Of a DNA stretch of 64,000 bases, positions 1 through 58,741 are shown in pieces. Origin of the DNA: Callorhinchus milii (taxonomy: Eukaryota); the NCBI RefSeq assembly GCF_018977255.1, contig NW_024704742.1, forward strand, positions 13,270,001 through 13,334,000, in the 5' to 3' direction. The stretch's first letter is position 1, and each line of letters opens with the position of its first letter. The position numbers and the translations under genes were made by a program. The notes below the pieces were generated by a model that saw nothing but the letters and a program-made list of their open reading frames with translations, searched no databases and was not told the DNA's origin.

Positions 1-12
1 GATGGGGCAGTA

Positions 13-2060
13 ATTTGAGAGTATAGAGTAATTGACGCTATAGTATTTATTACAATTAAACCTACTAAAATGTCAATGTATGTGACATTATTGATTAGAA
101 AATTAATAATTTTCTCTCTTATATCTATCAATGTTCACTCTACCCTGTCATTTCACTCTCACATCACACGTCCCAAATTATTTGGTCTTATGTGTAGTTC
201 TATGCAGACCCCCATATTCCTTAAATATTGTCTTGCTATTTGGCTGGCCAATTGCCATCACATTTTTTCCTTTTTTTGTGCTTGGGAATGTTTGTCAGAA
301 TATTTTCTGTAGCCCAAGATATTTTTTATAAACATCAGCAGGTGGTGTCATTGGATGACAGCATACCAGGTCTGAATTGGCCTTGCGCAACTGTGAGCAA
401 CTTTGAAATTTATTTTTTCAACCAGTTTTAGAGACGTTTAAGCTTTCTCACTAATTTGGAATAAAACTGATTCACAGCCAGGTGCTATAAAAAAATGTAA
501 ATGCCCCTGACTGCTGTTTGTATTCTACTCATTTTCAAAAAAGTTATTACTTTTAATCCAGTTACCAAATTCTTTTATCAAAATTGATTTGGTTTTCAAT
601 CCTCTCTTCCATTTTTTCTCAAATACCTTTTCTTCTGTAACATAAAATTAAAAGTTAAATTATCCTCCCCATTTTATTTGGGGTGATTTCAGGAATCTTC
701 TACAATTTATGATTCTATAATGAATCTTTGTGTCCTTGTGTATTTTTCCTTCTCCTACTTGGATGTTGATCACATCCTAAACAGGCGTCTGCTGTATTAT
801 TACCTTTTGCATGAGGTATGTTGTTTGTGTGTGCCTTGACTTTTTGAGTTGCAATTTGAGACTTATAAGGTAAAGCAATTTTAATAATAGCTTGCAGTAA
901 TTTTCCAGAGGGAGCGGTTTCCAGTCTGCCAATACAAACCCCCTCACCTTCCATTATTGGCAGATACTCTATAAGTAAATTACATGCATACATGGAATAC
1001 GAATAGATAGTAATTGGTAATGGATACATGTCGATGTTTCATAAAACATATGCAATTATTATTATTGTTATTATTATTAATTGCAGCTAATTCTGCCCCC
1101 TGTACTGCTCAGTGATCAGGTAAAGAAATTTTTACTTTTAAATCCATTTGTGGAACATAAATTCCAAATCCGGTTTGCCTCATCCCCTCAACTACTGAAT
1201 TAGATCCATTGACAGACAGTAGTGGATTGTGGAATTTCAATCGCTTTGAATGGACCCTTCAGATAAATTGGGCCACTTATACCACAATAACGAGTATCCT
1301 CTTCATAGAGTAACTTGTTAGCCAAAAATGGCGGAGAATTGAAATGTTTTATCGTAATGTCTCGTTTTTGTAACAATAAAGTCCATCGAGCCATACGGAC
1401 ATTTGATACCATCTAAAAGTAATTCTGTTGGGGTATAATTGGTTAACAAAAGCATAGGTGATAAACCAACAATGTTAAAACATTGATTAAAAAACTGATA
1501 AAGAGTTAAAACAACAGTGATAAAACAAAATGTTGCACAGCCCAAAATGTTTTTCACATTTTGAAAAAATTAGTTCTACAGGAGTCAATACTCTGGATGC
1601 AGAGTAATGCAGAGACACAGTTTACTATGCTTGTGCTGTAATAAAACTGCTGAAATAACTAAATCTGGGGCTGCTACTTCCAAATAAAAAGGTTCCCTTT
1701 CTGGAACTTGTAAAGCAGGAGCTGACACTAAAACTTGTTTTAACTTTTGTGCTGCTCAGTACAGGCTGGCGTCCAATTCCATTCAGCATGTTATTGTAAT
1801 AAAGCATAAAGGGGAGCACTGAGTGTAGCAAAATCTTCAATAAAAACCCTGCAATCCCCTACCAATCCTAAAAAAGATCTCAATGATGGGACAGAAGTTG
1901 GCCAGGGTAAGAGCTTAATGGTCTTCATTTTATCTTCATCAGGTACGAACATCTTTACCAATTTGGATCCTAAAAATGATGCATTCTCTTTAGCAATCTG
2001 TGTGTTTTAGGATTTACTTTTAATCTTGATTCATAGATCAACTGTAACAGTTCTGTCAAC
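13..2060 (-). mobile_element. Third partial copy of the retroelement (RT thumb, tether, RNase H, integrase deleted, post-IN region)
   Basis: Appears identical to 17379-19426 (offset 17366; ORF-track entries are identical). Confidence 0.8.
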
Positions 2061-4268
2061 ATCTTTCAATCCTTCTTGAACACCTGGGGTGGTGCCAGAG
2101 GACTGGGGGGTTGCAAATGTTACTCCGCTGTACAAAAAAGGGCAGAAGGATAAACCCGTGAACTACAGGCCTGTCAGCCTCTCAGTAGTGGAGAAACATC
2201 TGGAGACGTTAATCCGAGACAAAATAAATTTTCGCTTAGAAAACTATGGGTTATAAAGGACAACCAACATTGATTTGTTAAAGGCAAATCATGTCTAACA
2301 AACCTGATAAGAGTTTTCTTTGATGAAGTAACGGAGAGGGTGGATGAAGGTAGTGCAGTTGATGTAGTTTATATGGATTTTCAAAAGGCTTTTGATAAAG
2401 TGCCACATAAGAAACTGGTCAGCAAAATAGAAGCCCACGGTATTAAAGGGACAGTGGCAGCATGGATACAGAACTGGCTGGGAAACAGAAAGCAGAGAGA
2501 GGTGGTGAACGGTTGTTTTTCTGACTGGAGGGAAGTGTGCAGTGGTGTCCCCCAGGGATCAGTATTGGGACCACTGCTGTTTTTGATGGAGATACATGAC
2601 CTGGACTTGGATACAGGGAGTACAGTTTCCAAGTTTGCAGATGATACTAAGCTAGGAAAAGTGATAATTAGTGAGGAGGATAGTAAGAGGACGTAGACAG
2701 ACTGGTAAAATGGGTAGACACATGGCAGATGAAGTTTAATGTGGAGAAATGCAAAGTGATGCATTTTCGGAGGAAGAATGAGGAGAGGCAATATAAGCTG
2801 ATGGGATAATCTTACAGGGGGTGAATGAAAAGAGAGACCTGGGGATTCATATAAGTAAATCTTTGAAGGTATCAGGACAGGTAGATAAAGCTGTTAACAA
2901 TCACACGGGTTACTAGGCTTTATAAATAGGGGCAGAGAATACAAAAGTCAGGAAGTTATGATGAACCTTTATAAAACACTGGTTAGGCCTCAGCTAGAGT
3001 ACTGCGTTCAGTTCTGGGCCCCACACTTTAGGAAGGATGTCAAGGCATTGGAGAGGATGCAAAGGAGATTTACCAGGATGCTACCAGGAATGAGGGACTT
3101 TAGTTATCAGGAGAGGCTAGAGAAGCTTGGATTATTCTCCTTGGAGCAGAGAAGGTTACGAGGAGACTTAATAGAAGTTTTCAAAATTATGAGGGTGGCA
3201 ATGTGAACAAGGAGAAACGATTTCCACTGGCGGGTGGGTTGGTAACCTGAGGACACCAATTTAAGATAGTTGTTAAAAGAAACATAGATTTTTCATAGAT
3301 TCATAGAATGTTACGGCACAGAAAGAGGCCATTCGGCCCATCGAGTCTGTGCGGCTCTTTGACAAAGCAAGTCACTTTCACTAACCCCAATCACCAGCTT
3401 TCTCCCCATAACCCTGCAAACCCGTCCTCCCCAGATACCTATCCAGTTCTCTCTTAAAAGCTGTTATCGAATCGGACTTCACTACCCTTTCAGGCAGATC
3501 ATTCCAAATTCCAACAACTCGCTGAGTGAAAAAATTTCTTCTAACCTCCCCTCTGCTTCTTTTGGCAGATATCTTAAGACTGTGACCACGGGTCACAGAC
3601 ACACCTACCAGTGGAAACAGCTTTGCCTTATCGAGCCTGTCGAAACCTTTCATGATCTTGAAGACCTCTATCAGGTCCCCGCGTAACCTTCTCTGCTCTA
3701 ATGGGAAAAGTCCTAACTTCTCCAGCCTGTCCTCATAGCTAAGGTTCCCCATTCCTAGTATCATTCTCGTGAATCTCCTCTGCACCCTTTTCAGTGCTTA
3801 ATGTCCTTCCTGAAGTAAGGTGCCCAGAACTGGGCGCAGTACTCCAGCTGAGGCCTAATCAATGTTTTGTATAGATTAACCATAACCTCCCCACTCTTAT
3901 ACTCTATGCCCCTACTAATGAAGCTCAGTACACCAAATGCCTTTTTTACTGCCTTATCCACCTGCCCCCCTACCTTTAATGATTCGCTTACTTGAACACC
4001 CAGATCATGAGGGGAGGTGAGGAGAATTTTTTTCACACAACGAGTTGTTTGGATCTGGAAAGCGTTGCTTAAAAGGATGGTGGAAGCCAATTCAATCACA
4101 ACTCTTAAGAGAGTAGTAGATAATTATTTGGGGAGGACAAGTTTGCAGGGCTATGGGGAGAGAGTGGGGGGTGTGGGATTGAATTGGACAGCTCTTTTCA
4201 AAGAGCCGGCACAGACACGATGGGCCGGATGGCCATTTTCTGTGCTGTATAATTCTATGATTCTATGA
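2061..4268 (+). mobile_element. 5'-truncated CR1 inserted in the retroelement RT, with a nested antisense CR1 (~3283-4005)
   Basis: [47 protein letters not shown] tail at 4251-4268. The nested copy has its own tail. Confidence 0.9.
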
Positions 4269-4278
4269 ATTGTTCATG

Positions 4279-5965
4279 CAGGCGTGTGAACAGAAATCGG
4301 ATATGATCAGAATCAAGAGAGAGGAGGTACTAAAAAGGCTGTCGGTGCTCAACATAGATAAGTCACCTGGTCTGGACGGGATGCATCCTAGGCTACTGAG
4401 GGAAGCAAAAGTGGAAATAGCGGAAGCTCTGGCCACAATCTTTCAATCCTTCTTGAACACTAGGTGGTGCCAGAGGACTGGGGTTGCAAATGTTACTCCC
4501 CTGTACAAAAAGGGGCAGAAGGATAAACCTGAGAACTACAGGCCTCAGCCTCTCATTAGTGGAGAAACTCTGGAGACTATAATCCAGGACAAATAAATTT
4601 CCTTAGAAAATATGGGTTATAAAGGACACAACAGGATTTGTTAAAGGCAATCTGTCTAAAACCTAGATAGAGATTTTTGATGAAGTACGAGAGGTGGATG
4701 AAGGAAGTGCAGATGTAGTTTATTAGATTTTCAAAAGGTTTGAAAAGTGCCACATAAGAACTGGTACCAAAATAGAAGCCCACGGTATTAAAGGGACGTG
4801 GCACATGGATCCAGAACTGGCTGGGACAGAAAGCAGAGAGGGTAGTAAGGTTGCTTTTCTGACTGGTGTTCCCAGGGTCAGTATTGGGACCACTGCTTTT
4901 TGATAATAATGACTGGACTGATAAGGGAGACATTTCCAATTTGCAGAGATACTAAGCTAGAAAAGTGTTAATGTGAGAGGATAGCATCAGACTCTTCATA
5001 TCTGTTAAAAGAAACAGAGGGGAGGTTAGGAATTTTTTTTTCACCCAGCGCATTGCTCGGATCTGGAATGCATTACCTGAAAGGGTAGTGGAAGCCAATT
5101 CAATAACAACTTTTAAGAGAGAAGTAGATGGGTATTTGGGGAGGACAAGATTGCAGGGCTATGGAGAGGACTTAAGACAGATCGATAAAACGGGCAGAAA
5201 TGTGACAGATGAGGTTTAATGTGGAGAAATGCGAAGTGTTGCATTTTCGGTTGGAAGAATGAGGAGAGGCAGTTATAAGCTAGATGGTACAATCTTAAAG
5301 GGGGCAAATGAAAGAGTGACCGGGGGGTCCAATAAGCAAATCTCTGAAGGTGCAAGACAGGTAGATAAAACTGTTAAAAAAGCATATAGGTACTACGTTT
5401 TATAAATAGGGGCATAGAATCAAAGTCAGGAGGTTATGTTGAATTTTAAAATCTGGTATGGCCTCAGCTTGGAGTACTGCTTCAGTTCTGGGCACCCACT
5501 TTAGGAAGATGTAGGGCATTGGAGAGTGCAAAGGAGTTTACCAGGATGTACCGGGAATGAGGACCTTAGTTATGAGGAGAGTAGTGAAACTAGAATTATT
5601 CTCCTAGAGCAGAGAAGTTAGAGGGGATTTAAAGAGGTTTTCAAGATCATGAGAGGTTTGATAGTTGAACAGGAAAAACTGTTTCCACTGCGTGGGTCGT
5701 AACCCGAGGATACCAATTAAGTTAGTTAAAAGAAACGGAGGGGAGGTTCAGAATTTTTTTTCACCCAGCGAGTTATTCAGATCTGGAATGCATTACCTGA
5801 AAGGGTAGAGAGAAGTAGATTATTTTTGGAGGACAAGATTGCAGGACTTTGGAGAGAAAGCGGGCCAGTGGGATTCAGTTGGATTGCTCTTTTCGGAGCT
5901 GGTGCAGACACGTTGGGCCGAATGGCCTCTTTCTGTGCTGTATGATTCTATAAATTCAATGATTC
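4279..5965 (+). mobile_element. CR1 ORF2 3' portion (inverted duplicate of 34008-35782; many single-base deletions)
   Basis: [15 protein letters not shown] and NYRP motifs; tail gattctat near 5944. Confidence 0.85.
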
Positions 5966-6467
5966 TCAAATTTGAATAAAGAACAGAAAATCTGATGACA
6001 CTCAGCTATTTAACAGGGTAGTCCAACTTTCCCTCTGGCATTGGTTATTGAGTTCAAATCACTCTCTGTTCTTTCAGCAAATATTTGGTGGGATTAGGGA
6101 GTGTCAATAGGGAGTGTCAAAAGAATTATAATTACTAAATGATCCAGGAACACAGGATCATTTGTTGTTGTTTTTGATACCTTTGGAGATATTCTGTACT
6201 AGAGAACTTTTAAAATGTGATAATCGGACAGGTTTATTTACTAAAAGATGCCAGATTTAAAAAATAATCTGAGATTAGGATGAAACACATTGAGAAACAC
6301 TGCATTGATAAATGCAAAATCAGACAGACTCCATTCTGCCTCAATATGGCCTAGTACCTGTTTTGCGGCTAAGACCAAGGCAAAGATTAAGGGATAGGTT
6401 AAATGTGCCTGAGAGTTTTATTTGGGATTTTATGTTGGTTTATGTGCAGGTGCATTTTCTAGCTCAC

Positions 6468-6616
6468 CTGAGGTAAAGATTTTGCTGGCCGACAGTGTAT
6501 TCCTCCTACAAATACAAAATTAGGCAGAAATGGCCGGGGATAATCGAAGTCCCAATATGTTCGAATCAGCCAAATGTCAGCTTTACCCATTGTTTCACAG
6601 AACGTCGTTGGTTCAC
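6468..6616 (-). pseudogene. UGT2A: Duplicated copy of UGT2 exon 2 with intact splice sites
   Basis: Reverse complement of 33357-33505, inside inverted duplicate 4279-7302. No exon 3-6 copies follow it within the window. Confidence 0.8.
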
Positions 6617-7302
6617 CTTTGGAAAGAAATACAACAGATTAGAGAACAGAAACACAAGAGACAATCTGTGGCCCCAAATTAAATTTTCAAAATCAAATCT
6701 CGCTTAGAATTCTCAGGTCGCTGTGAGGACCTCAATTGTCCTACAGGATCACTGTTATCTGCTACACTTTGAAAACAGCAGTGGATCAATCCCAAGTGTG
6801 ACATCTCGCTTAAAACTGGAGTCTCTTCAGCACAAACCTGCGAAGCCTTCCTGGTAACCAACAGTTTTGACATTCTCTGTAGACACTGTGTTTCATGTAA
6901 AAGCTGCACAGTGCAAACCTGTGGCATTTCTGTTTGACAACAACTTACACTTACAAAGCGCCCTTCTCGCAGGGTAGCATCTCAGAGCATTTTATTCCCT
7001 GGTCCATGTGTTAATTAGCACAAGGAACATGTTAAGAAACACTGCAAACTTTATACCGGTGAAATAATAAAAACATAAAGAATTTATTTACTTAATAATA
7101 ATAATCCTTGCATTTGATATAGCACCTTCCATTTCAGGTGCTGTGCATTTATTTCAGATTATAATAATAATCCTTGAATTTGATATAGCGCCTTATCACA
7201 TCTTCAAGACATCTCAAAGCACTTCATAGATACACTGTAAAGTGAATAGACTGTATATTTTGTGGGCCAAACAAAAAAAAGATTTCCAGCTTTCAAGGGT
7301 TT

Positions 7303-8160
7303 ACGCCTTTTGAAAATCCATATAAACTATATCAACTCCACCACATTCATCCACCCTCTCCATTACTTCATCAAAAAACTCTATCAGGTTTGTTAGACAT
7401 GATTTGCCTTTAACAAATCCATGTTGGCTGTTCTTTATTAACCCATATTTTTCTAAGTGAAAATTTATTTTGTCCCAGATGTTAGTCTCCAGAAGTTTCC
7501 CCACTACTGACCTTAGGCTGACTGGCCTGTAGTTCCTGGGTTTATCCTTCTGCCTCTTTTTGTAGGGGAGTAACATTTGCAACCCTCCAATCCTCTGGAG
7601 GATATTATGTCTCCAATCTGTATTTTGGATCGCGTAATAAGATATTATGTCTCCAATCCAATCTCCAATCCGTTGTCCAAGGAGGATTGAAAGATTGTCG
7701 TCAGAGCCTCCTTTATTTCCACCCTTATTTCCCTCAGTAACCTAGGATGCATCCCGTCTGGACCGGGTGACTTATCTACCTTGAGCACTGACAACCTTTT
7801 TAGTACCTCCTCTCGTTTTTTTCTCATCTTATCCAATCCAAAGACAGATGCAAAGTACTCATTCAGTCCGTCAGCCATGCCCTCTGCCTCCACAAGAAGA
7901 TTTCCTCTTTGGTCACTGATTGGACCCACTCTACCTTTGACTAACCTTTTATTCTTTATGTATTTATAAAATACCTTAGAGTTTCCTTTTATGTTACCCG
8001 CTAATCTTTTCTCTAAACTAGAATATATTAGAATATACAGCACAGAAACAGGCCATTTGGCCCAAGTGGTCTATGATGATTGATGCTCCACATGAGCCTC
8101 CTCCTGCCCTTCCTCAACTAAGCCTTCAAGCACAACCTTCTATTCCTTTTTGCTCCTTAA
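7303..8160 (-). mobile_element. CR1 ORF2 fragments and a CR1 3'-end fragment
   Basis: [36 protein letters not shown]. Confidence 0.85.
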
Positions 8161-8289
8161 CTCTAACCAATCAATTCTGTTTTTAGACCCTCTAGCACAT
8201 TGTCCCTTTCCTAAAGAAAGTCTGTCTATTGAGCGCCTTGGGACGTCTCCAAGGTGCTATACAAATGTAATTTTGTTGTTGTTGTTGTA

Positions 8290-9290
8290 AACTCTTCCTC
8301 ACAGCACTAGTTAACCTCTCTGCAAGGACATCGGTCCCAGCCTATTCAGGTGTAACCCATCTACCAGGTCCCACCTGCCCCTGAACTGGTACCAACACTC
8401 CAGGAACCTGAAGCCCTCCTTTCTGCACAATTTCTCCAGCCATGCATTCATGTGTTTGATCCTGCTGTTTTGATACTCACTTGCACGAGGCACTGGGAGT
8501 AATCCATCTTTGAGGTCCTATTCTTTAGCTTTTTCCCTAGCTTCTGATACTCTCCTTGAAGGATCTCAGCCCTTTTCTCCCCTACATCAGGGATCCCAAC
8601 ATGGACCATGACTTTCTGGATATTCTTTCCCAGTAGAACGTTTTGCTCGTTCCCGATTGTTTTCAACCCCGGCACAAGGGGGAACGAGAGTGACATCTTT
8701 GGTTGCACAAACGCCTGTCTGCTCCTTTCACCCTGTGTCCCCTTGTGCACCCATTTGCTTTTGATTACCCTCCGCAGAGGGGCACCACCCTGACTGGCAT
8801 TCAGTGCAGAGACCCGTTTGTGAGTGCCACACTCAGGGGATTCCTGCACTCCCCATCCTTTCTTCCTACCATGCCAGATGGTCACCCACTCACTCTCGTT
8901 CTGAACCCTCTGTGGCTGTAGGGTGACTACCTCCTGAAATGTTCAATCCATGAACTCTTCAGCCTCCCATATGCTATGTAGTGACACCAGCCTCTCCTCA
9001 AGCTCAGAAACTCTGATCAAGCTCGAGCAGCCGGAGGCACTTCCGACACACGTGTCTGTCCAGGGCACACAGAGCATCCTGGAGTTCCCATATGGTACAC
9101 ATTGTGCATGCTGCTGCCATATTCCCAGACTTGTTTTCTATTATTTTAATATAACTTATATATTTTATAATTATGCACCTCATGCCTCCTCTGCACCAAA
9201 TTCCCACTCTCACCAAATTCCTTAACAGAATTCTCATTCTGTTCCACCTCACTCAGTTCCCTCCTCACACTGTGTCTCCGATCATTTTAT
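8290..9290 (-). mobile_element. CR1 5'UTR/ORF1 fragment (Zn finger + esterase)
   Basis: CTMCTIWE..HVCRKC, VHVG, DGLHLN. Confidence 0.8.
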
Positions 9291-11166
9291 GCTTGGATAT
9301 AATTACTTAAGCAACCAGAATTGTAAGTAATTAGAAAATTGTTAGCTCTATACATTAAACAAATGATTTTTTAATATACACATAAGTGATTTATAGTCAA
9401 AACAGAAACAGCATTAAAACCCAACATTCCCAAAGGACCATTGGCTCCAGAGTCTCACTCCACCCTACATCTGCAATCTCCTTCAATTTAACTGGCCACT
9501 TAGCGAGTACCGGCCTCACGTCCCCTCCTCAATCCATCCCACCATTGGCTGGCAGGTTTCAGCAATATTTGCCAATTAAGCAGAGAAAAAAAATGAATCA
9601 CTACTAGAGCTAATGTCTACCCAATCCAGGTTGTAGAGATGGAGTTACATGAAATAACCAAATTGACATCACCTCCAGCAGATCCAAACCTGAAGACTGT
9701 AATCAAAAATTTCTTCCAAGTTTTTTTAAAAAAATTATATCCTAGAAGTCCATAAAAAGTTTAGTTGCTTAAATTTGTCTTTGAACTGCCTTAATGAACT
9801 TGCACTTATCCCATCCACCCTGGGTTTCAGATGAGAATGTCACAAAAAAACATTAAAGGTCTCACATAACGCAGCATTAAGCCATTATTCCAGTTTCACC
9901 AGACCTGTGCTGATAGTTGAAATCAGCCAGGACAGAGTTGGGTCGCATATAGGCCTTTGGGTCCTCGAGTTGCGGAAAGGAAAAAACAAAGAGGTTCAGA
10001 TAAAGAAGGCTTTTGGACCAATTTGATTTAACTCTTACAGAATACCCAGTCTGTTATTATTTATATTAAAGCATTGAGCCTGCTTAAAAGACTCCAGTGG
10101 ACTGGTCTCAACCACACTTCCTGCTTAGCCTTTCCAGATATTAATTACCATCAATGTAAAGAAATATTTCCTGCAATCTGTCCTCAAATTACCTTTCACA
10201 ACATTCAATCTGTGTTTTCTTTAGTTCAGCCAAGTATCTGAAAATCCTCCATGTTTAATCTCCAAAAACAGTATACTGAATGAATGCATAACCATTTTTT
10301 ACCTGGGATAGATGTTGACCAAGACGCTATAGAAATTCACAGCACAGATTGAGCTCAAAGTTCCAACATGGTGTTTGAACCCAGAACCTTTTAACTCAGA
10401 GGCAAGAGTGCTAACAACTGAGCCAATATGACACTGGTTTCCATTCGCTTGGAATACAATACGCACAATCCTTATCGAACTCTAGAGGGTGTTAGGCACA
10501 GGATGGGGAATCCCAGAATGTGTGTTGTGACTCTACTGGAGCTTAAAAAGCTAAAACTGCAACCTACCATTGTGAACAAATGTATCAAGCTTCCCACTGC
10601 TTATCCAACTAGGGAAATGCCAAATAACCCATCAGGGATTTGGGTTGCAGGGCTAATTTTGGGGGGGTCTGCCAAGCATCTGACAGATGCAGAAACACAT
10701 CACCACACACACCATTTGGAAATACAGAGTTCCAAAGATGTGAAGACTTTCCTCTTTGATCATGCTTCCCGCCACCCTCCCCCCTAATCAATCAATGACT
10801 GTTGTGGGACACTTCTGTGCTCAATTGGCTGCCGCGTTTCATCCACAAAATACGGTCAATTCACTTTGTGATATATTCTGTGAAGCCTTTTGAGATGTCG
10901 CAACAACATGATATATGAACTATATGAACTGCAGGGAAAATTATGATTATATTATTATTATTATTACCTCTGTCCCAAGGAGCCGTCACTTCTGGTTTAC
11001 TCCCCTGCCCACCCCGGGGCTCTAATAATAATAATCCTGGCATTTAATAAAGCGCCTCATCACGTCTTTGAGATGTCTCAAAGCGCTTCACAGTATTGAC
11101 TGTAAAGTGAATTGCCTGTGTATTGTAGGCAAAATATAAACCGGGGTCAGGGTTTATGTCCCTGAT

Positions 11167-11194
11167 GACAGACAGACAGACAGACAGACAGACA
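11167..11194. repeat. (GACA)7 microsatellite
   Basis: Read directly from the sequence. Confidence 0.9.
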
Positions 11195-11199
11195 GAGAC

Positions 11200-11690
11200 C
11201 AAGCCCCCCACCCCGGCTCCCCCCTCTGGCCCTGTGTCTCTGTCTGTGCCTCACAGGGGGGAGGAGTTTGACACTGAGCGGCCCAGGCCCTGACCTAGGC
11301 CTAGACACAGTGTCAGGCGGACTCTGGTCTCGGAGCCGGAGAGGTGAGCAAGACCCGGGCGGGGGGAGGCACAATGACTGGCCGGCCGGGTGGCGGTGAC
11401 CGGTGGGTGGTGTGACGGTCGCTCTCACCTTTCTCCTCGCGGTTCTCCGCCATCCCTCTGACTCGCCGCACACTCTGCTCCAGCAAAATGGCGCCGCCCG
11501 CGATCCCACAGGCCTTCCCGCCCGTCGCGCGTCACAATGCGGACCCGTCGCGACGTCACAATGGGCGGTGGCGGCCACGTACGTCACAATGGGCCTGCCC
11601 CCCCTCAACCCCACCTCCCCGGTGTTTGCTGGTCACGTGGTGGCTCTGACGTGGTGTGTGTGTGGAGCGTTCCATCCTCTCCGTCCACAC
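11200..11690 (-). promoter_or_regulatory. CpG-island housekeeping-type promoter and first-exon region
   Basis: Clearly GC/CpG-rich non-repeat tract in an AT-rich window. YY1-type CAAAATGGCGCC at 11484-11495; three CGTCACAATG units (11530, 11554, 11582); CACGTG near 11634; TGACGTGG near 11647. Confidence 0.75.
11429..11453 (-). CDS. YTHDC1: First coding exon resembling YTHDC1 exon 1 (MAENREEK + phase-1 donor)
   Basis: Minus strand gggATGGCGGAGAACCGCGAGGAGAAAG|GTGAGA inside a CpG island. Resembles the YTHDC1 N-terminus MAADSREEK|D, and YTHDC1 lies next to the UGT2 cluster in vertebrates (human 4q13). Only 8 codons, and YTHDC1 exon 2 was not found. Confidence 0.6.
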
Positions 11691-11844
11691 AGCGCTCACT
11701 CAACACATTCACACACATACTTCAGAATTTTGTAAACCAAATCAGGGGACATATACTTAAAAAAAGGGAACTCACCACTGTTCCTGGTTCTGGCAGTACT
11801 GGAGCAGCTTGTTTCACTGATGAGTGTATGTGTTTCAGAATGTT

Positions 11845-12127
11845 ATAGTCCTTGCATTTGATATAACGCTTCTCATGTCTTCGAGACGCCTCAAAGCGCT
11901 TCACAGAATATCTTGTAAAGTGAGTTGTTTGTGGGCGAAACACAGCAGCCAATTGCGCACAGCAACGTCCCACAAACAGTCGTGGATTGAAATGACCAAT
12001 TTATTGTGTGTTTTGTCTTGAGGGATTGTTATCAGTCATGTGGAGTAAGGAAACTTGCCCAAGGTTTGGCCCTGCCGGGAATTGAACACAGGTCTCTCAT
12101 TTGCAAAGCCACTGAGCTACAGGACTC
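11845..12127 (-). mobile_element. tRNA-derived SINE
   Basis: Same family; head CTGAGCTACAGGACTC on +. Confidence 0.8.
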
Positions 12128-12344
12128 CACCCCTTATACAATCACAATACATACGCCACTCGTTTGTGCACACATTCACACATTTACTCACACATTTACA
12201 CATACACATTCATGGATACATACTAAAATACACTCATTTCATGCATACTGATACATTCACTCTCAATACACTTGAATATATATATGTACTCATTCACACA
12301 CACACATGCATACAATACATAAATCTATACTCACTCACATACAT

Positions 12345-14330
12345 GATAATACGATTGAACTTGACATTAGGTTTGAGAGGGAGAAGGGAAAGTCCCAAAC
12401 CAAGGTTTTAAATTTAAGTAAGGCAAACTTCGATGGGTTGAGAAATAAATTGGCCACAGTAAACTGGGCTGAACTGTTAGTGGGTAAACCTACAAATAAA
12501 CAATGGGAAATATTCAAAAAAGTACAATACAATAGAATACAATACAGAACAAGTACATAACCCTAAAATGCAAAAGCTCCAACTGTGTAGTGAAGCAACC
12601 ATGGTTGACAAAAGAGGTTAGAGACTGTATCAAGCTAAAAGAAAAGGCTTACTCAAATGCAAGAAAAAGTGGGAATGCAGACAACTGGAAGAACTGACAC
12701 AAGGCAACAAAGAGATCCAAAGAAAGTACTAAGAGGAGCAAAAAGGAAATACGAAAAAAACTTGCAAGGGATATTAAAACCAATCGAAAAAGTTTTTACA
12801 AATATATTAAGAGAAAGAGTTGTCAAGGGGAATATGGGCCTGTTAAAGATAGATATAGGTGAGACTATAATGGAAAATAAGTAAATGGCTGACGTTAAAT
12901 AAATACTTTGCTAACGTTTTAACAGTAGAGGATGAATACAAAACACCAGCTGTACAGGGGAACCTAAAAATAAGTCAAAGTGAAATACTTAGACTTATTA
13001 ATGTAAATAAAAAATGGTAATGGGGAAAATAATGAGACTCAAGATAGACAAATCTCCAGGAACTGATAGTTTCTACCCAGGGGGTTAAAGGAAATAGGAG
13101 AGGAAATTGCAGATGCATTCGTCATCATTTTCCAAAGCTCACTAGATTTGGGAATTGTGCCCTAAGATTGGAAAATTGTGAATGTCACCCTTTTATTTAA
13201 GAAGGGAGGCAGGCAGAAACCAGGAAACTACAGACTTGTCAGCTTAAGGTCACTTGTAGGAAAAATACTGGAATCCATCATCAGGGACAGAGTGACTGAA
13301 CACTTGGACAGGTATGAACTAGTCAAAGAGAGTTAACATAGGTTTGTGAAGGGTAGGTCGTGTCTGACTAATCCAGTTGAATTTTTTGAGAAGTCACTAA
13401 AATGGTTGGCCTTTATCTCAAGGGGCCTGAATACAAAGGGGAAGAAATGCTGCTTCAGCTGTATAGATCGTTGGTCAGACCCCATCTGAAGTACTGCATT
13501 CAGTTTTGGGCACCGCACCTGTTTCCAGGCCTTAAAGTGTTAAGTTTAAGGCATGTCCCTACCTCTCCGAACGCCACACTCCGCAATCCACCACCGGGCG
13601 CCTCCACTAAACTGGCATCGGCCTCCTGCTTGTCCCTCGCACCCTCCGCCCCACCATTGGAGGTCGCGCTTTCAGCCACTACGCCCCAAAACTCTGGAAC
13701 ACTCTCAATCCCTCCGTCATTGTCCCCTTTTATCTCTTTTCTCAAGTCCCACCTGAAAACCTTTTTTTTGACCGTGCTTACGGTCACCTTCCACCCCACC
13801 CCTGGCTTGGAGTCAGGCTCCGCCGCTGTTAAACACTCTGAGACACTGTGTGGAGGGCGCTATATAAGTGCAAGTTGTTGTTGTTGTAAGTTATGAGGAA
13901 AGGCTGCATAAACTTGGATTGTATTCCCTGGGTTTAGAAGGTTGAGGGGTGATTTAATTGAGGTATTTAAAGTGATTTGATAGGGTAGATACAAGAAGCT
14001 ATTTCCTCTGGTGGGAGAATCCAAAACAAAGGCATAGTCTTCAAATTAAAACCAGGCCATTTAAGAGTGAAATCAGAAGCATTTTTTCACTTAAAGGGGG
14101 TGGTGGGGTAGAAATCTGGAACTCTCTCCACAAAAGGCTGTGGATACTGGATCTATCCACACCTTCAAAAGTGAAGTTGATAGATTTTTGGTAGATCAGG
14201 GTATCAAGGGATATGGGGAAAGAGTGAGAAATTGGAATTGACAGGATTAGTTGAGGTACAGATCAGCCATGATCTAATCTAATTGAATGGCGGAAGAGGC
14301 TCAAAGGGCTGAATGGCCTACTCTTGTTCG
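12345..14330 (+). mobile_element. Internally deleted CR1 ORF2 with an L2 3' fragment inserted (~13550-13886)
   Basis: [33 protein letters not shown]1 3'UTR ending near 14330. The inserted piece ends in (TTG)n. Confidence 0.8.
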
Positions 14331-14761
14331 TACATTCACATGCACTCATTCACCCACACCCAAACAAATACCCATGTACACTCACCCACAATTCGCACAT
14401 ATATACATTTAAGTACACAAAAGTACACAAGAAAAAACTTGCAAATCATTCTTGCTCTACTTCTCCTTTTCAAACAATTGCTCGATCCTGTTCCTTCCAC
14501 AATGAAACATGTCACTATGACCGAAGAAGGTTTTGGTTAGTGCTGTACTGAGTCCATTCATATTTCTTGCAATATAATAATAATCTTTGCATTTCATACC
14601 ATGCCTTTTCATGGTGTCCAGCCATCTCAAAGAGCTTCACAGTATATAAAGTAAAGTAATTGTTTATTTTTGGGGAAATGTGAGTCAAATGTGAGACTGA
14701 TTCACTTCCATTGAACACCACAATGACATTTCATTCTGGAACGAAAACGCAAAGGAGCTAT

Positions 14762-15488
14762 TGTAAGGGTTAATTTGTTTTCATGACCCTGCGTGAAGTA
14801 AGGACTGACACAAATGTTGTACATTTAATCAAGGTTTATTAATTCAGATTAATAATGGTTATAAGTAATTAAAAAATACATTCAATTATGCTTACATATC
14901 CACGTCTACTGTTCACAACAATTGAAGTTGACCAAACCAAATGCTACGGGAGAGGTAGAGGAGCAATGTCCAATTTAATGTTCCATTTTAATCCAAATAT
15001 AAGTCCTCAAAAGGTATCCAAGTATTGTTGTACGGTTCCCAGTTTGATATCGCCCAAAACTATCCAGGTATTATTGTGCGTTTAGTGTTGTCCTAGTCTT
15101 GATTTTTTTTATAAGCTGGAATATGGTTTGTGACTCCAAGTTCCAATTTCTTCCCTTCTCTCCTTCTCTTTTGAATTGATCTCTGTTTATACAGTTCGTT
15201 AGGTGACCTTTCACCGATCATCTTTTGCAGAATGGTTCCTTTGTAAAAACAAATGCAACATAGCTCTCTTAAACTGCAGACCATTTTTCCATCAGAAAAT
15301 GATTGATGAGGAATAAAAACAGTGTTGTTTATAAACAGTCTTTTGTTTCTCCTCCTTCAGCAAGGATCTTCTTCGAAGCTAGTCACAACCAGCTCTCCTC
15401 ATATGAGATTCATCATATGTCTCAAATATATAAACATCTCAAATATAATTTGAGATATTATTTAACACATTAACTACAGAAATCTACA
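14762..15488 (-). mobile_element. Candidate 3' LTR (~727 bp) of the retroelement
   Basis: On minus: degenerate PPT-like CAGGGCGGAC, then TGTAG...; AATAAA ~75 nt before the end; terminus ...CCCTTACA (TGTA...TACA). No second LTR in the window to confirm it. Confidence 0.5.
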
Positions 15489-15939
15489 GTCCGCCCTGAA
15501 GTGAGTTAAGGTTACAAATGTAAACCCACTTTTATTACTGTAATTAATGTAAAATTGGTACCATTCCCCTCTATCTCTTCCACTACATTCAATCTCCAAT
15601 CTATTTTAACATTTTTATGATTCTTTAATCGTTCATAAAAAATTCCACATTTTTTTCCATCATAAAAATCCATCAATTGTAGTAAATCATTATTAATAAT
15701 GATAAAAATAAAGTAACAAGGTTATACTTAAATTGTATGACCACAAAAATAAAATATTACTTTAGTGGGTGTTCCTTTTTTATGGGCACACTTCTTTTCT
15801 TTCAAAATATCATCTTCCAAAATTCCCAATCAATGTATCCATGTTTAATTTGTATAAACATCACTTTGATTAAATACTGGAATGTATAAAATAAATGATA
15901 CATGAAATAAAATCAGAATAAATCCAGTAATATTAAGAT

Positions 15940-17378
15940 AACAACAACAACTACAACAAAATTATATTTGTATAGCGCCTTTCACGTCAGGAGGACATCC
16001 CAAGGTGCTGGAAAGACAGAGTTATGGACCCGAGCTTGGGGTCGGGGTCAGGGAGGATGGAGGACAGGAGGGGAAGCAGGGAAATCAAAAGCACGGTCGA
16101 AGAGGAGGGTCTTGAGATGGATCTTGAAGGTGGCAAGGGAGGGGGCAAGGTGGAGGGACAGCGAGATGGAGTTCCAGAGGGTGAGTGCAGAGTAGCAGAA
16201 AGCCTAACCACCATTAGTGGGGTGAGCGAAGCAGGGGACGTGAAGCAGGCCACAGCCCGCTGAGCGGAGGTAGCGACAGGATGGTAGCGGTTAGGAGGTC
16301 ACAGAGGTAGGGGGAGCAAGACCATGGAGGGTTTTGAAGGTGAGGACCAGGATCTTGAACTGTATCCTCTGTGTGATGGGAAGCCAGTGGAGTTGGGCGA
16401 GGATGGGGCGATAGGGTCGCAGAGCTTAGTGCGGGAGAGGACACGGGCTGCAGAGTTCTGGATGATCTGCAGCCTGTGGAGGGAGGAGTTGGGGAGGCCG
16501 ATAAGCAAGGAGTTTGCATAGTTGAGCCTCGATGTTATGAAGGCGTGTATGAGGGTTTTGGCGGCCTGCGGTGTGAGACAGTGGTGGAACCGGACAATGT
16601 TGCAGAGGTGGGGGAAGGCAGAGCGGGTCATGGCGCAGATGTGAAGTCTAAAGGACAGTTGAGGGTCAAACAAGACCCCAAGGTTCCGGACTGGCTTAGC
16701 AAGCTGTGCAACCAAAGATGGTGTTGCTGTCAGCGCCTGAGGTGAGGAGGCGCTGACGGGAGAGCCTCGGTCTTGTTTACGTTGTTTACATGAAGAAAGT
16801 TAGCTCTCACCCAGGACTTGATATCCGACAGATATTCTGTCAGGACAGCAGTGGCAGGACAGCAGTGGTCCTGGAGTTAAAGGTAGAGACAGAGTGGTAG
16901 TTGGGTGTCATCTGCATACATGTGGACGTTGACCCTATGTCTGCGGATGATGTCACCAAGAGGGCGCATATAGATATTGAAGAGGAGGGGACCAAGGACA
17001 GTCCTGAGGAAAGCCGCATGAGACGGTGCAATGGCGAGAGAAAAAAATGTTTGTGGAGATGAAGTGGAGGCGGTGTGAGAGGTACGAACTGAACCAGTCA
17101 AGGACAGAAGAGAGGTGGTGGATGAGGATAGAGTGGTCGATGGTGTCGAAGGCAGCAGAGAGGTCAAGGAAGACGAGGAGGCAGAGGGAGCCCTGGTTGC
17201 AGATGGAGAGAATGTCATTTGTCCCTTTGACCAGGGCTGTTTCTGTGCTGTGGGCGGCACGGAAACCCAATTGGAGGGGTTCGAGAAGGGAATGGCGGGA
17301 GAGGAAGGAGTGAAGCTGAGAAGCAACAACTTGTTCCAGGACCTTGGAGAGGAAAGGGAGGTTGGAGATGGGGCAGTA
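15940..17378 (-). mobile_element. 5'-truncated L2 LINE inserted in the retroelement post-IN region
   Basis: [41 protein letters not shown]; (TTG)n-type tail at 15940-15960. Confidence 0.9.
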
Positions 17379-19426
17379 ATTTGAGAGTATAGAGTAATTG
17401 ACGCTATAGTATTTATTACAATTAAACCTACTAAAATGTCAATGTATGTGACATTATTGATTAGAAAATTAATAATTTTCTCTCTTATATCTATCAATGT
17501 TCACTCTACCCTGTCATTTCACTCTCACATCACACGTCCCAAATTATTTGGTCTTATGTGTAGTTCTATGCAGACCCCCATATTCCTTAAATATTGTCTT
17601 GCTATTTGGCTGGCCAATTGCCATCACATTTTTTCCTTTTTTTGTGCTTGGGAATGTTTGTCAGAATATTTTCTGTAGCCCAAGATATTTTTTATAAACA
17701 TCAGCAGGTGGTGTCATTGGATGACAGCATACCAGGTCTGAATTGGCCTTGCGCAACTGTGAGCAACTTTGAAATTTATTTTTTCAACCAGTTTTAGAGA
17801 CGTTTAAGCTTTCTCACTAATTTGGAATAAAACTGATTCACAGCCAGGTGCTATAAAAAAATGTAAATGCCCCTGACTGCTGTTTGTATTCTACTCATTT
17901 TCAAAAAAGTTATTACTTTTAATCCAGTTACCAAATTCTTTTATCAAAATTGATTTGGTTTTCAATCCTCTCTTCCATTTTTTCTCAAATACCTTTTCTT
18001 CTGTAACATAAAATTAAAAGTTAAATTATCCTCCCCATTTTATTTGGGGTGATTTCAGGAATCTTCTACAATTTATGATTCTATAATGAATCTTTGTGTC
18101 CTTGTGTATTTTTCCTTCTCCTACTTGGATGTTGATCACATCCTAAACAGGCGTCTGCTGTATTATTACCTTTTGCATGAGGTATGTTGTTTGTGTGTGC
18201 CTTGACTTTTTGAGTTGCAATTTGAGACTTATAAGGTAAAGCAATTTTAATAATAGCTTGCAGTAATTTTCCAGAGGGAGCGGTTTCCAGTCTGCCAATA
18301 CAAACCCCCTCACCTTCCATTATTGGCAGATACTCTATAAGTAAATTACATGCATACATGGAATACGAATAGATAGTAATTGGTAATGGATACATGTCGA
18401 TGTTTCATAAAACATATGCAATTATTATTATTGTTATTATTATTAATTGCAGCTAATTCTGCCCCCTGTACTGCTCAGTGATCAGGTAAAGAAATTTTTA
18501 CTTTTAAATCCATTTGTGGAACATAAATTCCAAATCCGGTTTGCCTCATCCCCTCAACTACTGAATTAGATCCATTGACAGACAGTAGTGGATTGTGGAA
18601 TTTCAATCGCTTTGAATGGACCCTTCAGATAAATTGGGCCACTTATACCACAATAACGAGTATCCTCTTCATAGAGTAACTTGTTAGCCAAAAATGGCGG
18701 AGAATTGAAATGTTTTATCGTAATGTCTCGTTTTTGTAACAATAAAGTCCATCGAGCCATACGGACATTTGATACCATCTAAAAGTAATTCTGTTGGGGT
18801 ATAATTGGTTAACAAAAGCATAGGTGATAAACCAACAATGTTAAAACATTGATTAAAAAACTGATAAAGAGTTAAAACAACAGTGATAAAACAAAATGTT
18901 GCACAGCCCAAAATGTTTTTCACATTTTGAAAAAATTAGTTCTACAGGAGTCAATACTCTGGATGCAGAGTAATGCAGAGACACAGTTTACTATGCTTGT
19001 GCTGTAATAAAACTGCTGAAATAACTAAATCTGGGGCTGCTACTTCCAAATAAAAAGGTTCCCTTTCTGGAACTTGTAAAGCAGGAGCTGACACTAAAAC
19101 TTGTTTTAACTTTTGTGCTGCTCAGTACAGGCTGGCGTCCAATTCCATTCAGCATGTTATTGTAATAAAGCATAAAGGGGAGCACTGAGTGTAGCAAAAT
19201 CTTCAATAAAAACCCTGCAATCCCCTACCAATCCTAAAAAAGATCTCAATGATGGGACAGAAGTTGGCCAGGGTAAGAGCTTAATGGTCTTCATTTTATC
19301 TTCATCAGGTACGAACATCTTTACCAATTTGGATCCTAAAAATGATGCATTCTCTTTAGCAATCTGTGTGTTTTAGGATTTACTTTTAATCTTGATTCAT
19401 AGATCAACTGTAACAGTTCTGTCAAC

Positions 19427-21634
19427 ATCTTTCAATCCTTCTTGAACACCTGGGGTGGTGCCAGAGGACTGGGGGGTTGCAAATGTTACTCCGCTGTACA
19501 AAAAAGGGCAGAAGGATAAACCCGTGAACTACAGGCCTGTCAGCCTCTCAGTAGTGGAGAAACATCTGGAGACGTTAATCCGAGACAAAATAAATTTTCG
19601 CTTAGAAAACTATGGGTTATAAAGGACAACCAACATTGATTTGTTAAAGGCAAATCATGTCTAACAAACCTGATAAGAGTTTTCTTTGATGAAGTAACGG
19701 AGAGGGTGGATGAAGGTAGTGCAGTTGATGTAGTTTATATGGATTTTCAAAAGGCTTTTGATAAAGTGCCACATAAGAAACTGGTCAGCAAAATAGAAGC
19801 CCACGGTATTAAAGGGACAGTGGCAGCATGGATACAGAACTGGCTGGGAAACAGAAAGCAGAGAGAGGTGGTGAACGGTTGTTTTTCTGACTGGAGGGAA
19901 GTGTGCAGTGGTGTCCCCCAGGGATCAGTATTGGGACCACTGCTGTTTTTGATGGAGATACATGACCTGGACTTGGATACAGGGAGTACAGTTTCCAAGT
20001 TTGCAGATGATACTAAGCTAGGAAAAGTGATAATTAGTGAGGAGGATAGTAAGAGGACGTAGACAGACTGGTAAAATGGGTAGACACATGGCAGATGAAG
20101 TTTAATGTGGAGAAATGCAAAGTGATGCATTTTCGGAGGAAGAATGAGGAGAGGCAATATAAGCTGATGGGATAATCTTACAGGGGGTGAATGAAAAGAG
20201 AGACCTGGGGATTCATATAAGTAAATCTTTGAAGGTATCAGGACAGGTAGATAAAGCTGTTAACAATCACACGGGTTACTAGGCTTTATAAATAGGGGCA
20301 GAGAATACAAAAGTCAGGAAGTTATGATGAACCTTTATAAAACACTGGTTAGGCCTCAGCTAGAGTACTGCGTTCAGTTCTGGGCCCCACACTTTAGGAA
20401 GGATGTCAAGGCATTGGAGAGGATGCAAAGGAGATTTACCAGGATGCTACCAGGAATGAGGGACTTTAGTTATCAGGAGAGGCTAGAGAAGCTTGGATTA
20501 TTCTCCTTGGAGCAGAGAAGGTTACGAGGAGACTTAATAGAAGTTTTCAAAATTATGAGGGTGGCAATGTGAACAAGGAGAAACGATTTCCACTGGCGGG
20601 TGGGTTGGTAACCTGAGGACACCAATTTAAGATAGTTGTTAAAAGAAACATAGATTTTTCATAGATTCATAGAATGTTACGGCACAGAAAGAGGCCATTC
20701 GGCCCATCGAGTCTGTGCGGCTCTTTGACAAAGCAAGTCACTTTCACTAACCCCAATCACCAGCTTTCTCCCCATAACCCTGCAAACCCGTCCTCCCCAG
20801 ATACCTATCCAGTTCTCTCTTAAAAGCTGTTATCGAATCGGACTTCACTACCCTTTCAGGCAGATCATTCCAAATTCCAACAACTCGCTGAGTGAAAAAA
20901 TTTCTTCTAACCTCCCCTCTGCTTCTTTTGGCAGATATCTTAAGACTGTGACCACGGGTCACAGACACACCTACCAGTGGAAACAGCTTTGCCTTATCGA
21001 GCCTGTCGAAACCTTTCATGATCTTGAAGACCTCTATCAGGTCCCCGCGTAACCTTCTCTGCTCTAATGGGAAAAGTCCTAACTTCTCCAGCCTGTCCTC
21101 ATAGCTAAGGTTCCCCATTCCTAGTATCATTCTCGTGAATCTCCTCTGCACCCTTTTCAGTGCTTAATGTCCTTCCTGAAGTAAGGTGCCCAGAACTGGG
21201 CGCAGTACTCCAGCTGAGGCCTAATCAATGTTTTGTATAGATTAACCATAACCTCCCCACTCTTATACTCTATGCCCCTACTAATGAAGCTCAGTACACC
21301 AAATGCCTTTTTTACTGCCTTATCCACCTGCCCCCCTACCTTTAATGATTCGCTTACTTGAACACCCAGATCATGAGGGGAGGTGAGGAGAATTTTTTTC
21401 ACACAACGAGTTGTTTGGATCTGGAAAGCGTTGCTTAAAAGGATGGTGGAAGCCAATTCAATCACAACTCTTAAGAGAGTAGTAGATAATTATTTGGGGA
21501 GGACAAGTTTGCAGGGCTATGGGGAGAGAGTGGGGGGTGTGGGATTGAATTGGACAGCTCTTTTCAAAGAGCCGGCACAGACACGATGGGCCGGATGGCC
21601 ATTTTCTGTGCTGTATAATTCTATGATTCTATGA
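19427..21634 (+). mobile_element. Same nested CR1 pair, second copy
   Basis: ORF translations identical to 2061-4268. Confidence 0.9.
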
Positions 21635-21644
21635 ATTGTTCATG

Positions 21645-21669
21645 NNNNNNNNNNNNNNNNNNNNNNNNN
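21645..21669. other. Assembly gap (25 N)
   Basis: Run of N; the flanks are contiguous in the paralogous copy near 50450. Confidence 0.99.
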
Positions 21670-25150: not shown

Positions 25151-25192
25151 AATTGCAAAAACTGCAGGGATCCAATTTTAAAGTTTTAAAGT

Positions 25193-25500
25193 GAGTCCTG
25201 TAGCTCAGTGGTTAGAGCGCTCGCTTTGCGAGCGAGAGACCTGAGTTCAATTCCAGGCAGGGCCAAACTTTGGGCAAGTTTCCTTACTCCACACACCTAA
25301 TAATAATCCCTCCAAAACCAAAAACAATAATAACTTGGTCATTTTCAATCTACGACTGTTTGTGGACATTGCTGTGGGCAATTGGCTGCCGCGTTCTTTC
25401 ACAAATATACAGTCAATTCACTTTACAGTGTGTTCTGTGAAGCGCTTTGGGATGTCCTCCAACGTGAAAAGCGCTATATCAAATGCAAAGATTATTATTT
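25193..25500 (+). mobile_element. tRNA-derived SINE with L2-like tail
   Basis: A-box TAGCTCAGTGG, B-box GAGTTCAATTCC, core CAATTGGCTGCCGCG, tail GCGCTATATCAAATGCAA..(ATT)n. Confidence 0.85.
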
Positions 25501-25801
25501 ATTTATTTGCCACCAGCTGGGGTCTGAAACTCTGTCTGTCCAGCGCATTGGGATGTCCTCGCAACGTGAAAGGTGCTATACAAATGTAATTTTGTTGTTG
25601 TTGTTGTTATTGTCTGATTCCAAAATCTCTGCAAGTTTCGACTATTATAATGTGTCCTTGGTTTATTATCAACCGCAGTGAGCTGCTCTTATCAACACTG
25701 AAGCTTTCATTCACTGATCAATATATTACTATTTTCGCCCACAAAATATACAGTCAATTCACTTTACAGTCTATTCCACGAAGCGCTTTGAGACGTCTCA
25801 A

Positions 25802-30236: not shown

Positions 30237-30537
30237 TTGAGACGTCTCAAAGCGCTTCGTGGAATAGACTGTAAAGTGAATTGACTGTATATTTTGTGGG
30301 CGAAAATAGTAATATATTGATCAGTGAATGAAAGCTTCAGTGCTGATAAGAGCAGCTCACTGAGGTTGACAATAAACCAAGGACATATTATAAAAGTTGC
30401 AACTTACAGAGATTTGGGAGTCAGACAATAACAACAACAACAACAAAATTACATTTGTATAGCACCTTTCACGTTGCGAGGACATCCCAATGCGCTGGAC
30501 AGACAGAGTTTCAGACCCCAGCTGGTGGCAAATAAAT

Positions 30538-30846: not shown

Positions 30847-30889
30847 ACTTTAAAACTTTAAAATTGGATCCCTGCAGTTTTTGCAATTT

Positions 30890-58570: not shown

Positions 58571-58741
58571 TTTCTGTTTTTAACCTTTTATGGTTAATAT
58601 AATCTTGCTGTTGTTGTTCCCACCCTGTCCTCAACCCTCCCTGCACCCGACCCCAGCTCGGGCCCGAAAGTCTGTCTATCAAGCGCTTTGGGACGTCTTC
58701 CCAAGGTGCTATACAAATGTAATTTTGTTGTTGTTGTTGTA

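Follow-up and report, generated by a model that had tools for sequence, protein, structure and literature searches.

Chimeric genes can arise through duplication combined with exon shuffling, the jingwei gene of Drosophila being an example. Replication template switching (FoSTeS/MMBIR) yields tandem duplications that carry inverted templated insertions, and genes of the UGT2A1/UGT2A2 type splice alternative first exons to a set of common exons 2–6. The two genes that meet at the locus described here are YTHDC1, which encodes an m6A reader, and UGT2A, a detoxification gene. False duplications in genome assemblies form a further relevant class: they are marked by gaps between pairs of copies on the same scaffold and by under-collapsed copies that stem from long-read errors, with read depth and k-mer copy number as the main criteria (PMC9516828). 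The reference assembly of Callorhinchus milii is entered as PacBio CLR/Falcon/HiRise in Table 1 of another report (PMC12952989).

The window—that is, the whole stretch of C. milii DNA that was analysed, 64,000 nucleotides in length—contains a minus-strand arrangement that a sequence-only reading had proposed to be a young chimeric gene, with a YTHDC1-like promoter and first exon lying upstream of, and in phase with, a duplicated UGT2 exon 2. All of the sequence features underlying this proposal were found again on re-reading. The YTHDC1-like coding part (11429–11453) opens with an ATG at 11453–11451 and runs for 25 coding bases to 11429, followed by GTGAGA with a phase-1 GT donor at 11428–11427; the UGT2 exon is preceded by a polypyrimidine tract and an AG at 6618–6617, extends over 149 nt from 6616 to 6468 (entered in phase 1 and left in phase 0), and has GTGAGC directly after it. 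Approximately 4.8 kb separate the two exons, no YTHDC1 exon 2 lies in that interval, the splice phases are compatible, and the computed join of both exons reads open for 58 codons. The CpG island is likewise present at 11150–11700 (65.9% G+C, CpG observed/expected 0.71), and 11300–11650 reaches 68.1% G+C and an observed/expected ratio of 0.89; the average across the window is 42% G+C. Matching phase alone is weak evidence for a fusion, because two phase-1 boundaries coincide one time in three by chance.

Both parts had been correctly identified. Checked against the YTHDC1 of this species, the 25-nt exon is the exact N-terminal exon, encoding MAENREEK ahead of DGEVNV in the protein; eight of the 12 members of the YTHDC1 cluster start with MAENREEKDGEVNV, and the other four are N-terminal fragments or variants. 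The 149-nt exon duplicates UGT2A exon 2 in inverted orientation: it shows 100% identity with the exon on the plus strand near 33356–33505, shares 84% identity with a shark UGT2A1-like protein, and matches positions 214–264 of the 499 in the Pfam UDPGT model (PF00201) with 63.9 bits.

The chimera built from these parts is not supported, as it consists of 58 codons and lies in error-rich second copies beside a scaffold gap. With a probability of roughly 0.65, we consider the YTHDC1–UGT2A arrangement to be an assembly artefact, i.e., a false duplication or mis-join; an assembly error is the most likely explanation because the stretch is duplicated and of low quality and has no capacity to encode a working enzyme. 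The caveat that the junctions at 4279 and 7302 might be artefactual is thus judged the better reading, and both positions are exact edges of duplicated blocks. Block U2 (7303–21644), in which the YTHDC1 5' region appears a second time, comprises exon 1 with a portion of intron 1, the CpG island (hence a second copy of the promoter), and upstream DNA. It equals window positions −10096 to 4278; the corresponding block, U1, comes first and is the cleaner of the two, starting beyond the window at −10096 and having its right end at 1–4278. The matching copy of the exon (C1:13263991–13264313, 99% identical) is located ~17.4 kb to the left of 11429–11453, and it is from this first copy that YTHDC1 would naturally start. 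The YTH exon lies at C1:13245139–13245252 and can be reached from the second copy of exon 1 solely through block B (described below) and all of U1, a distance of ~36 kb. Alignment of U2 with U1 (14,382 columns, 99.6% identity) gave 11 mismatches and 38 gap openings, with the bases absent from U2 at 34 of the 38, the differences being almost exclusively missing single bases; the final 5.2 kb of U2 are identical to U1, and no difference falls between 11402 and 11888, a stretch that takes in the promoter, exon 1, and donor.

Block B (4279–7302, ~3 kb) is an inverted copy of 35782–32671 and contains the end of UGT2A intron 1, exon 2, the start of intron 2, and pieces of LINE and SINE elements; its original, B' (32671–35782, plus strand), holds the real UGT2A exon 2. 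Their 3,116 aligned columns include 9 mismatches and 86 gaps, and the bases are absent from B at 82 of these 86. All differences are confined to 4452–5715, and the 1,587 bp from 7302 to 5716, exon included, are identical to B'. The differing half of B carries ~7% one-base deletions, has error-free stretches at 4279–4451 and 4978–5248, and shows one-base indels relative to B' that fall in homopolymers in 24 of 77 cases. True older paralogues in the window diverge by substitutions (27 in 2,098 for G/G', 24 in 2,418 for D/D', and 11 in 3,493 for A'/A''). A single raw read would not be expected to yield such error-free parts of B or the error-free final 5.2 kb of U2, an observation that runs counter to an artefact.

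U2 ends at a scaffold gap of 25 N (21645–21669), the sole long run of N, whose flanks abut without loss: record 7 of sequencing run X1 (623 nt) aligns to 21611–22258 with exactly 25 gap letters. Beyond the gap are block H (21670–23371), a 100% identical inverted copy of 50450–48749, and block I (23370–27966), the left arm of a palindrome with a 98-nt spacer and an inverted copy of 32672–28065. Block I is 99.3% identical to the other arm, with bases absent from I at 13 of 14 gaps and a cluster of ten substitutions at 25618–25695. A palindromic long read with a missed adapter was considered as the source of the two arms and rejected as a poor fit, given the unique 98-nt spacer and the ten-substitution patch. 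On unplaced contigs, a search with the palindrome arm and with block B (40 of 1,465 and 40 of 4,115 candidates scored, respectively) gave no copy of either beyond the two already known, the remaining matches being SINE/LINE relatives. B ends (32671) and I begins (32672) at a common breakpoint, and therefore the 16 kb of U2 plus H resemble a single clean insertion, for which a real event offers a neat explanation. At junction 4278/4279, ~19 of 22 bases are microhomologous to the beginning of block H, and the two remaining junctions are blunt (0–2 nt). Microhomology of this kind is what biological template switching or deletion typically leaves and is not predicted by an overlap mis-join, which again runs counter to an artefact.

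Assembled contigs from sequencing runs (Logan) were compared with positions 4150–24149, using X1 and X2 (DNA-like, with a possible dependence on the assembled sample) as well as X5 and X9 (RNA by guess). Over 11206–11902, the X1 and X2 contigs show four gap letters each, corresponding to the four single bases that U2 lacks relative to U1; since they carry the U1 form, the peculiarities of U2 appear to be errors, insofar as the runs are independent of the assembled sample. The joint from 11429 to 6616 is not among 15 joints listed of 9,107 in the four runs, where SINE/LINE contigs predominate. Similarly, no contig over 4278/4279 or 7302/7303 occurs among 32 pieces listed of ~223,800, and contigs break at the SINE at 7093–7260; depth on the pieces listed ranges from 7.5 to 27.8, a noisy measure without a single-copy baseline. 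Contig 25 of X9, a probable RNA run (1,543 nt, depth 148.8), matches 4150–24149 only at 6467–6618, and the rest of it (1,091 and 300 nt) is located elsewhere, off this interval.

The real UGT2A gene occupies the plus strand, with exons 2–6 at 33.3–45.6 kb. Exons 3–6 (~41117–41275, 42004–42132, 43897–44145, and 45275–45586) translate identically to the species records P0018 and P0124. That exons 3–6 do not follow the exon copy in its own orientation had been conceded from the outset, and they were found only on the plus strand at 41–45.6 kb; a search of the minus strand over 60 kb leftward of the copy revealed no UGT exons. Residues 1–244 of P0124, the full-length UGT2A record of the species, have no locus in the whole assembly (G000) or near the exon copy, the best matches being paralogues with 29–35% identity. 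Two different exon 1 ends precede the same exon 2 in the species records, SEIPG in P0018 and SEVLG in P0124, and the exon end encoding SEIPG was not found in 184 kb around the window. Because the assembly interval contains no true UGT2A first exon, the NCBI UGT2A1 model (281 aa) is truncated and begins within exon 2, at an internal Met. The loss of this exon from the whole assembly indicates that the locus is mis-assembled or rearranged.

Two real neighbours face each other head to head here, YTHDC1 on the minus strand to the left of the window and UGT2A on the plus strand; under the artefact reading, the ground between them has been copied extra in the assembly. The 14.4 kb of U2, with the promoter, exon 1, and some of intron 1 of YTHDC1, would have been placed twice, and the inverted 3 kb of B, with the UGT2A exon 2 region, would have been inserted between U1 and U2. 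The extra copies resemble an unpolished long-read draft and terminate at the scaffold gap; most likely, the locus, being rich in repeats and partly palindromic, gave rise to a false duplication or mis-join, and the true UGT2A exon 1 was lost from the assembly at the same locus. We infer that the order U1–B–U2 exists in no molecule of the animal. As in the false duplications described in PMC9516828, the two nearly identical copies share a scaffold, one of them is bordered by a gap, and their differences are of the sequencing-error type, as in the 'homotype' (under-collapsed) class, with a false gene gain as the result. Unlike those cases, a third, inverted block whose junctions show microhomology sits between the copies here.

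A real and very young rearrangement, perhaps confined to one animal, is a somewhat unlikely alternative: a 14.4-kb tandem duplication with a 3-kb inverted piece templated by UGT2A. As in FoSTeS/MMBIR, the order is copy, inverted nearby piece, and copy again, with microhomology at 4278/4279, and the breakpoint common to B and I agrees with such an origin; unlike FoSTeS/MMBIR, the other two junctions are blunt, and the extra copies bear error-like deletions. The locus is also prone to rearrangement because of the true older duplications there. Promoter, exon 1, and donor do not differ between the two copies, and the UGT exon retains both of its splice sites. Transcription could start from the copied promoter, with the UGT exon acting as a cassette or 'poison' exon before the true YTHDC1 exons. 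Splicing from the UGT exon copy onward into YTHDC1 exon 2 shifts the frame; exon 2, read in phase 0, has a stop at its 11th codon, for a total of 68 codons via the UGT exon. Such a transcript would be short and non-productive, and it would yield no new protein. This reading must contend with copy differences that are one-sided and of the error type, the termination of U2 at a gap, an assembly devoid of the true UGT2A exon 1, and DNA contigs that match U1 rather than U2; moreover, UGT residues occur in none of the 12 YTHDC1 protein records of the species.

It is rather improbable that U1–B–U2 is real in this animal and reflects a very recent replication-based event, one in which the YTHDC1 promoter and first exon were copied, an inverted UGT2A exon came to lie behind that copy, and YTHDC1 gained a second, upstream promoter through exon capture. 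If true, YTHDC1 transcripts from the upstream promoter would have to skip or include a frame-breaking UGT2A 'poison' exon, and an exon capture would have been caught in the act.

A working young chimeric gene, expressing a UGT2 common-exon protein from the YTHDC1 promoter behind an 8-residue leader, is highly improbable: the phases agree, 58 codons are open, and the promoter is a CpG island, but the product would span only the short Pfam UDPGT segment given above, further UGT exons are confined to the opposite strand, an unspliced read past the exon copy into the intron meets a stop after two further codons, splicing to YTHDC1 exon 2 breaks the frame, and the X9 contig with exon 2 continues elsewhere. 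The exon is homologous to UDP-glucuronosyltransferases (PF00201), but the unit has neither the signal-peptide-bearing N-terminal, acceptor-binding half nor the C-terminal, UDP-sugar-binding half of such an enzyme. The resemblance to jingwei is that, after duplication, one gene's promoter and first exon precede a phase-compatible exon of a second gene; unlike jingwei, no downstream exons or domain are seen, no transcript over the junction appears among the joints listed, the frame does not run open into a functional domain, and the duplication itself is doubtful. The comparison with UGT2A1/UGT2A2 is similarly divided: exon 2 measures 149 nt in phase 1, and two exon 1 ends appear in the species records, but the YTHDC1 exon, unlike a UGT2A first exon, supplies no signal peptide and no aglycone-binding domain.

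Because no new protein is possible, the arrangement has no importance as a gene. It serves instead as a warning that the YTHDC1–UGT2A interval of this assembly holds false or unresolved duplications and is without the true UGT2A first exon(s), so that any tally of UGT2 genes, of promoter copies, or of 'young chimeras' based on the region would be wrong. Three older NCBI models of the species have identical UGT exons 3–5, and there could thus be more than one true UGT copy, a point that runs counter to an artefact. UGT matches on C43 and at 32.87–32.89 Mb of C1 have equal scores exon by exon, which hints that uncollapsed duplicates may have been kept in the assembly there as well.

The sequence-only reading had placed a YTHDC1 promoter and first exon upstream of a UGT2 exon 2 on the minus strand and had proposed a possible young chimeric gene, and all of the features it described were found: a CpG island at 11150-11700 (65.9% G+C; CpG observed/expected 0.71), an ATG at 11453 with 25 coding bases running to 11429 and a GTGAGA donor, and, about 4.8 kb away, a 149-nt UGT exon (6616-6468) preceded by a pyrimidine tract and AG and followed by a GTGAGC donor. 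The latter corresponds to positions 214-264 of 499 in Pfam UDPGT, and when the two exons were spliced in silico, the predicted open frame was obtained (58 codons); the phase match is by itself a one-in-three event. The N-terminus MAENREEK-DGEVNV is shared by 8 of the 12 YTHDC1 cluster members of the species (the remaining four are fragmentary or vary at the N-terminus), so the 25-nt exon was rightly named as the true YTHDC1 first exon; UGT residues occur in none of these 12 records.

The true YTHDC1 gene is on the minus strand, left of the window, where the adjoining exons match C. milii YTHDC1. Its CpG island and exon 1 (C1:13263991-13264313 on the contig carrying the window, i.e., window -6009 to -5687) are 99% identical to the copy around 11429-11453, and are followed on the same strand by exon 2 (DGEVNVLDDIL...; about -12,470 to -12,570), later exons out to about -41,000, and the YTH domain exon (C1:13245139-13245252). 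NCBI models of both YTHDC1 and UGT2A are recorded on this chromosome.

The block structure of the locus (the window being C1:13270001-13334000 of the 991.5-Mb assembly) accounts for the exon pair. The same 14.4 kb of YTHDC1 5' sequence is present twice, as U1 (-10096 to 4278) and U2 (7303-21644), which are 99.6% identical across 14,382 aligned columns; they are separated by B (4279-7302), an inverted copy of B' (35782-32671) that carries UGT exon 2. Since U2 supplies the candidate exon 1 and B the UGT exon, the "gene" exists only through the position of B between U1 and U2, and no exon 2 stands behind the U2 copy of exon 1 because YTHDC1 exon 2 sits 2.4 kb past the left-hand boundary of U1. 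The right-hand boundary of U2 is the only long N run (25 N, 21645-21669). Beyond it come block H (21670-23371), which matches 50450-48749 in inverted orientation at 100% identity, and block I (23370-27966), an inverted copy of I' (32672-28065). Together, I and I' form a palindrome (23370-32672) with 4.6-kb arms of 99.3% identity and a unique 98-nt spacer (27967-28064). The arms differ mostly by single bases absent from the left one, with ten substitutions grouped at 25618-25695 versus 30343-30420.

Relative to U1, U2 shows 11 mismatches and 38 gaps, with bases absent from U2 at 34 of the 38, and its last 5,240 bases show no difference. B and B' (3,116 columns) differ by 9 mismatches and 86 gaps, 82 of which are bases absent from B; these differences are confined to 4452-5715 at roughly one per 15 bases, and only 24 of 77 one-base indels fall in homopolymers. 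The remaining 1,587 bases of B match B' without a difference, the UGT exon with its splice sites among them, and a 231-codon LINE frame intact in B' is broken in B by one-base deletions. In contrast, older paralogues in the window differ mainly by substitutions: 27 with 7 gaps for G/G' (2,098 columns; mixed, five in G and two in G'), 24 with 15 gaps for D/D' (2,418 columns; all bases absent from D), and 11 with 4 gaps for A'/A'' (3,493 columns; all absent from A''). Judged by this pattern, U2 and B resemble unpolished drafts of U1 and B' rather than diverged paralogues. A young LINE copy on the minus strand (35105-38145) has open frames of 231 (reverse transcriptase), 252 (endonuclease), and 200 codons (with an esterase-like ORF1 part), and its copy in block B is full of one-base deletions.

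Logan contigs of four runs were aligned to 4150-24149. DNA-like contigs of runs X1 and X2 over 11206-11902 carry four gap letters each, which coincide with four one-base deletions of U2 versus U1 at 11359-11401; these contigs hold the bases absent from U2, and thus real DNA has the U1 form there, with the proviso that independence of X1 and X2 from the assembled sample is not assured. Another X1 contig (623 nt) bridges 21611-22258 with a gap of exactly 25 letters, giving the scaffold gap zero true length, and the two flanks join exactly as they do at 50450/50451 in the inverted copy. A contig of run X9 (RNA only by guess; 1,543 nt, depth 148.8) aligned only at 6467-6618 (contig positions 1092-1243), while its flanking 1,091 and 300 nt map elsewhere, as would be expected of a normal spliced UGT2A mRNA, in which exon 2 stands between the true exon 1 and exons 3-6 with the 3' UTR.

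The true UGT2A gene is on the plus strand, with exon 2 at about 33356-33505; its exons 3-6 occur on that strand alone, between 41.1 and 45.6 kb, in line with the earlier caveat that they do not follow in the orientation of the candidate. Translations of the UGT exons are 100% identical to C. milii records, and the full-length protein P0124 (534 aa) is identical to this gene over exons 2-6. Its residues 1-244, encoded by exon 1, had no match in 184 kb around the window, searched with two shark relatives, and matched nothing but paralogues at 29-35% identity in the whole assembly; the NCBI UGT2A model for this chromosome is a truncated one (P0121, 281 aa) whose first residue is a Met within exon 2. 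The DNA required upstream of exon 2 (33356) is thus absent, and would be expected exactly where the palindrome and duplicated blocks are found; the locus is either mis-assembled or represents a rearranged haplotype. In two records of the species, the end of exon 1 differs before the same exon 2 (SEIPG in P0018, SEVLG in P0124), which suggests that first exons are used alternatively, as in UGT2A1/2A2; an SEIPG-coding site was absent from the 184 kb. Elsewhere, five UGT exon matches on C43:594401-613430 have E-values and scores identical to five on C1:32867824-32886896, of which the C43 region may be an uncollapsed duplicate.

According to Table 1 of PMC12952989, the C. milii reference was assembled from PacBio CLR data with Falcon, Chicago, and Hi-C with HiRise. 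Marks of false duplication described in PMC9516828 include low or half read depth, gaps separating duplicated pairs on one scaffold, and under-collapsed copies carrying long-read errors, and two of these, the gap at the pair and the error-type copies, occur at the YTHDC1-UGT2A locus. An assembly artefact is the favoured reading of the exon pair, at a probability of about 0.65. A real, very young, but non-productive rearrangement is a tentative second choice. At 4278/4279, the start of B matches a site 11 bases into H at about 19 of 22 bases, which ligation chimeras or overlap errors do not predict, and B ends at the very breakpoint where I begins (32671/32672), so that U2 plus H can be read as a single clean insertion of 16 kb in an otherwise continuous B-I; the remaining junctions are blunt, with 0-2 nt of common sequence. 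The locus also holds true older duplications, and UGT exons 3-5 are identical in three older NCBI models, which may point to more than one true copy. These features together keep a distinctly smaller share of the odds for rearrangement.

If the arrangement is real, transcription from the U2 promoter would run into a UGT exon with intact splice sites but no UGT exons 3-6. Read into the intron, the frame stops two codons past the exon; after splicing to YTHDC1 exon 2, the 149 nt put translation out of frame, and it would reach a stop at codon 11 of the YTHDC1 exon. The predicted product (about 60-68 residues) would contain no more of the UGT fold than the linker joining its two halves, and its transcript would be a likely target of nonsense-mediated decay. 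A working chimeric gene is thus highly improbable: the observed features and their naming stand, whereas the proposed young gene lacks support.

An older inverted duplication (16073-21644 versus 50451-57637; 98.1-99.5% identity, substitution-type differences) has 1.6 kb extra in its right copy (53938-55546), and this stretch includes an integrase-like open frame (54412-55117). An older direct paralogue of 8216-11104 and 12168-12688 (58666-62573; 96-97% identity, substitutions) matches the DNA flanking the YTHDC1 CpG island and exon 1 but contains neither; in it, one SINE occupies the place taken in the original by a SINE tail, the island, and another SINE, an arrangement that suggests SINE-SINE deletion. 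Single N letters occur in the flanks at window -27786, -19728, -7543, 93643, and 100901, one of them inside U1 where U2 has A.
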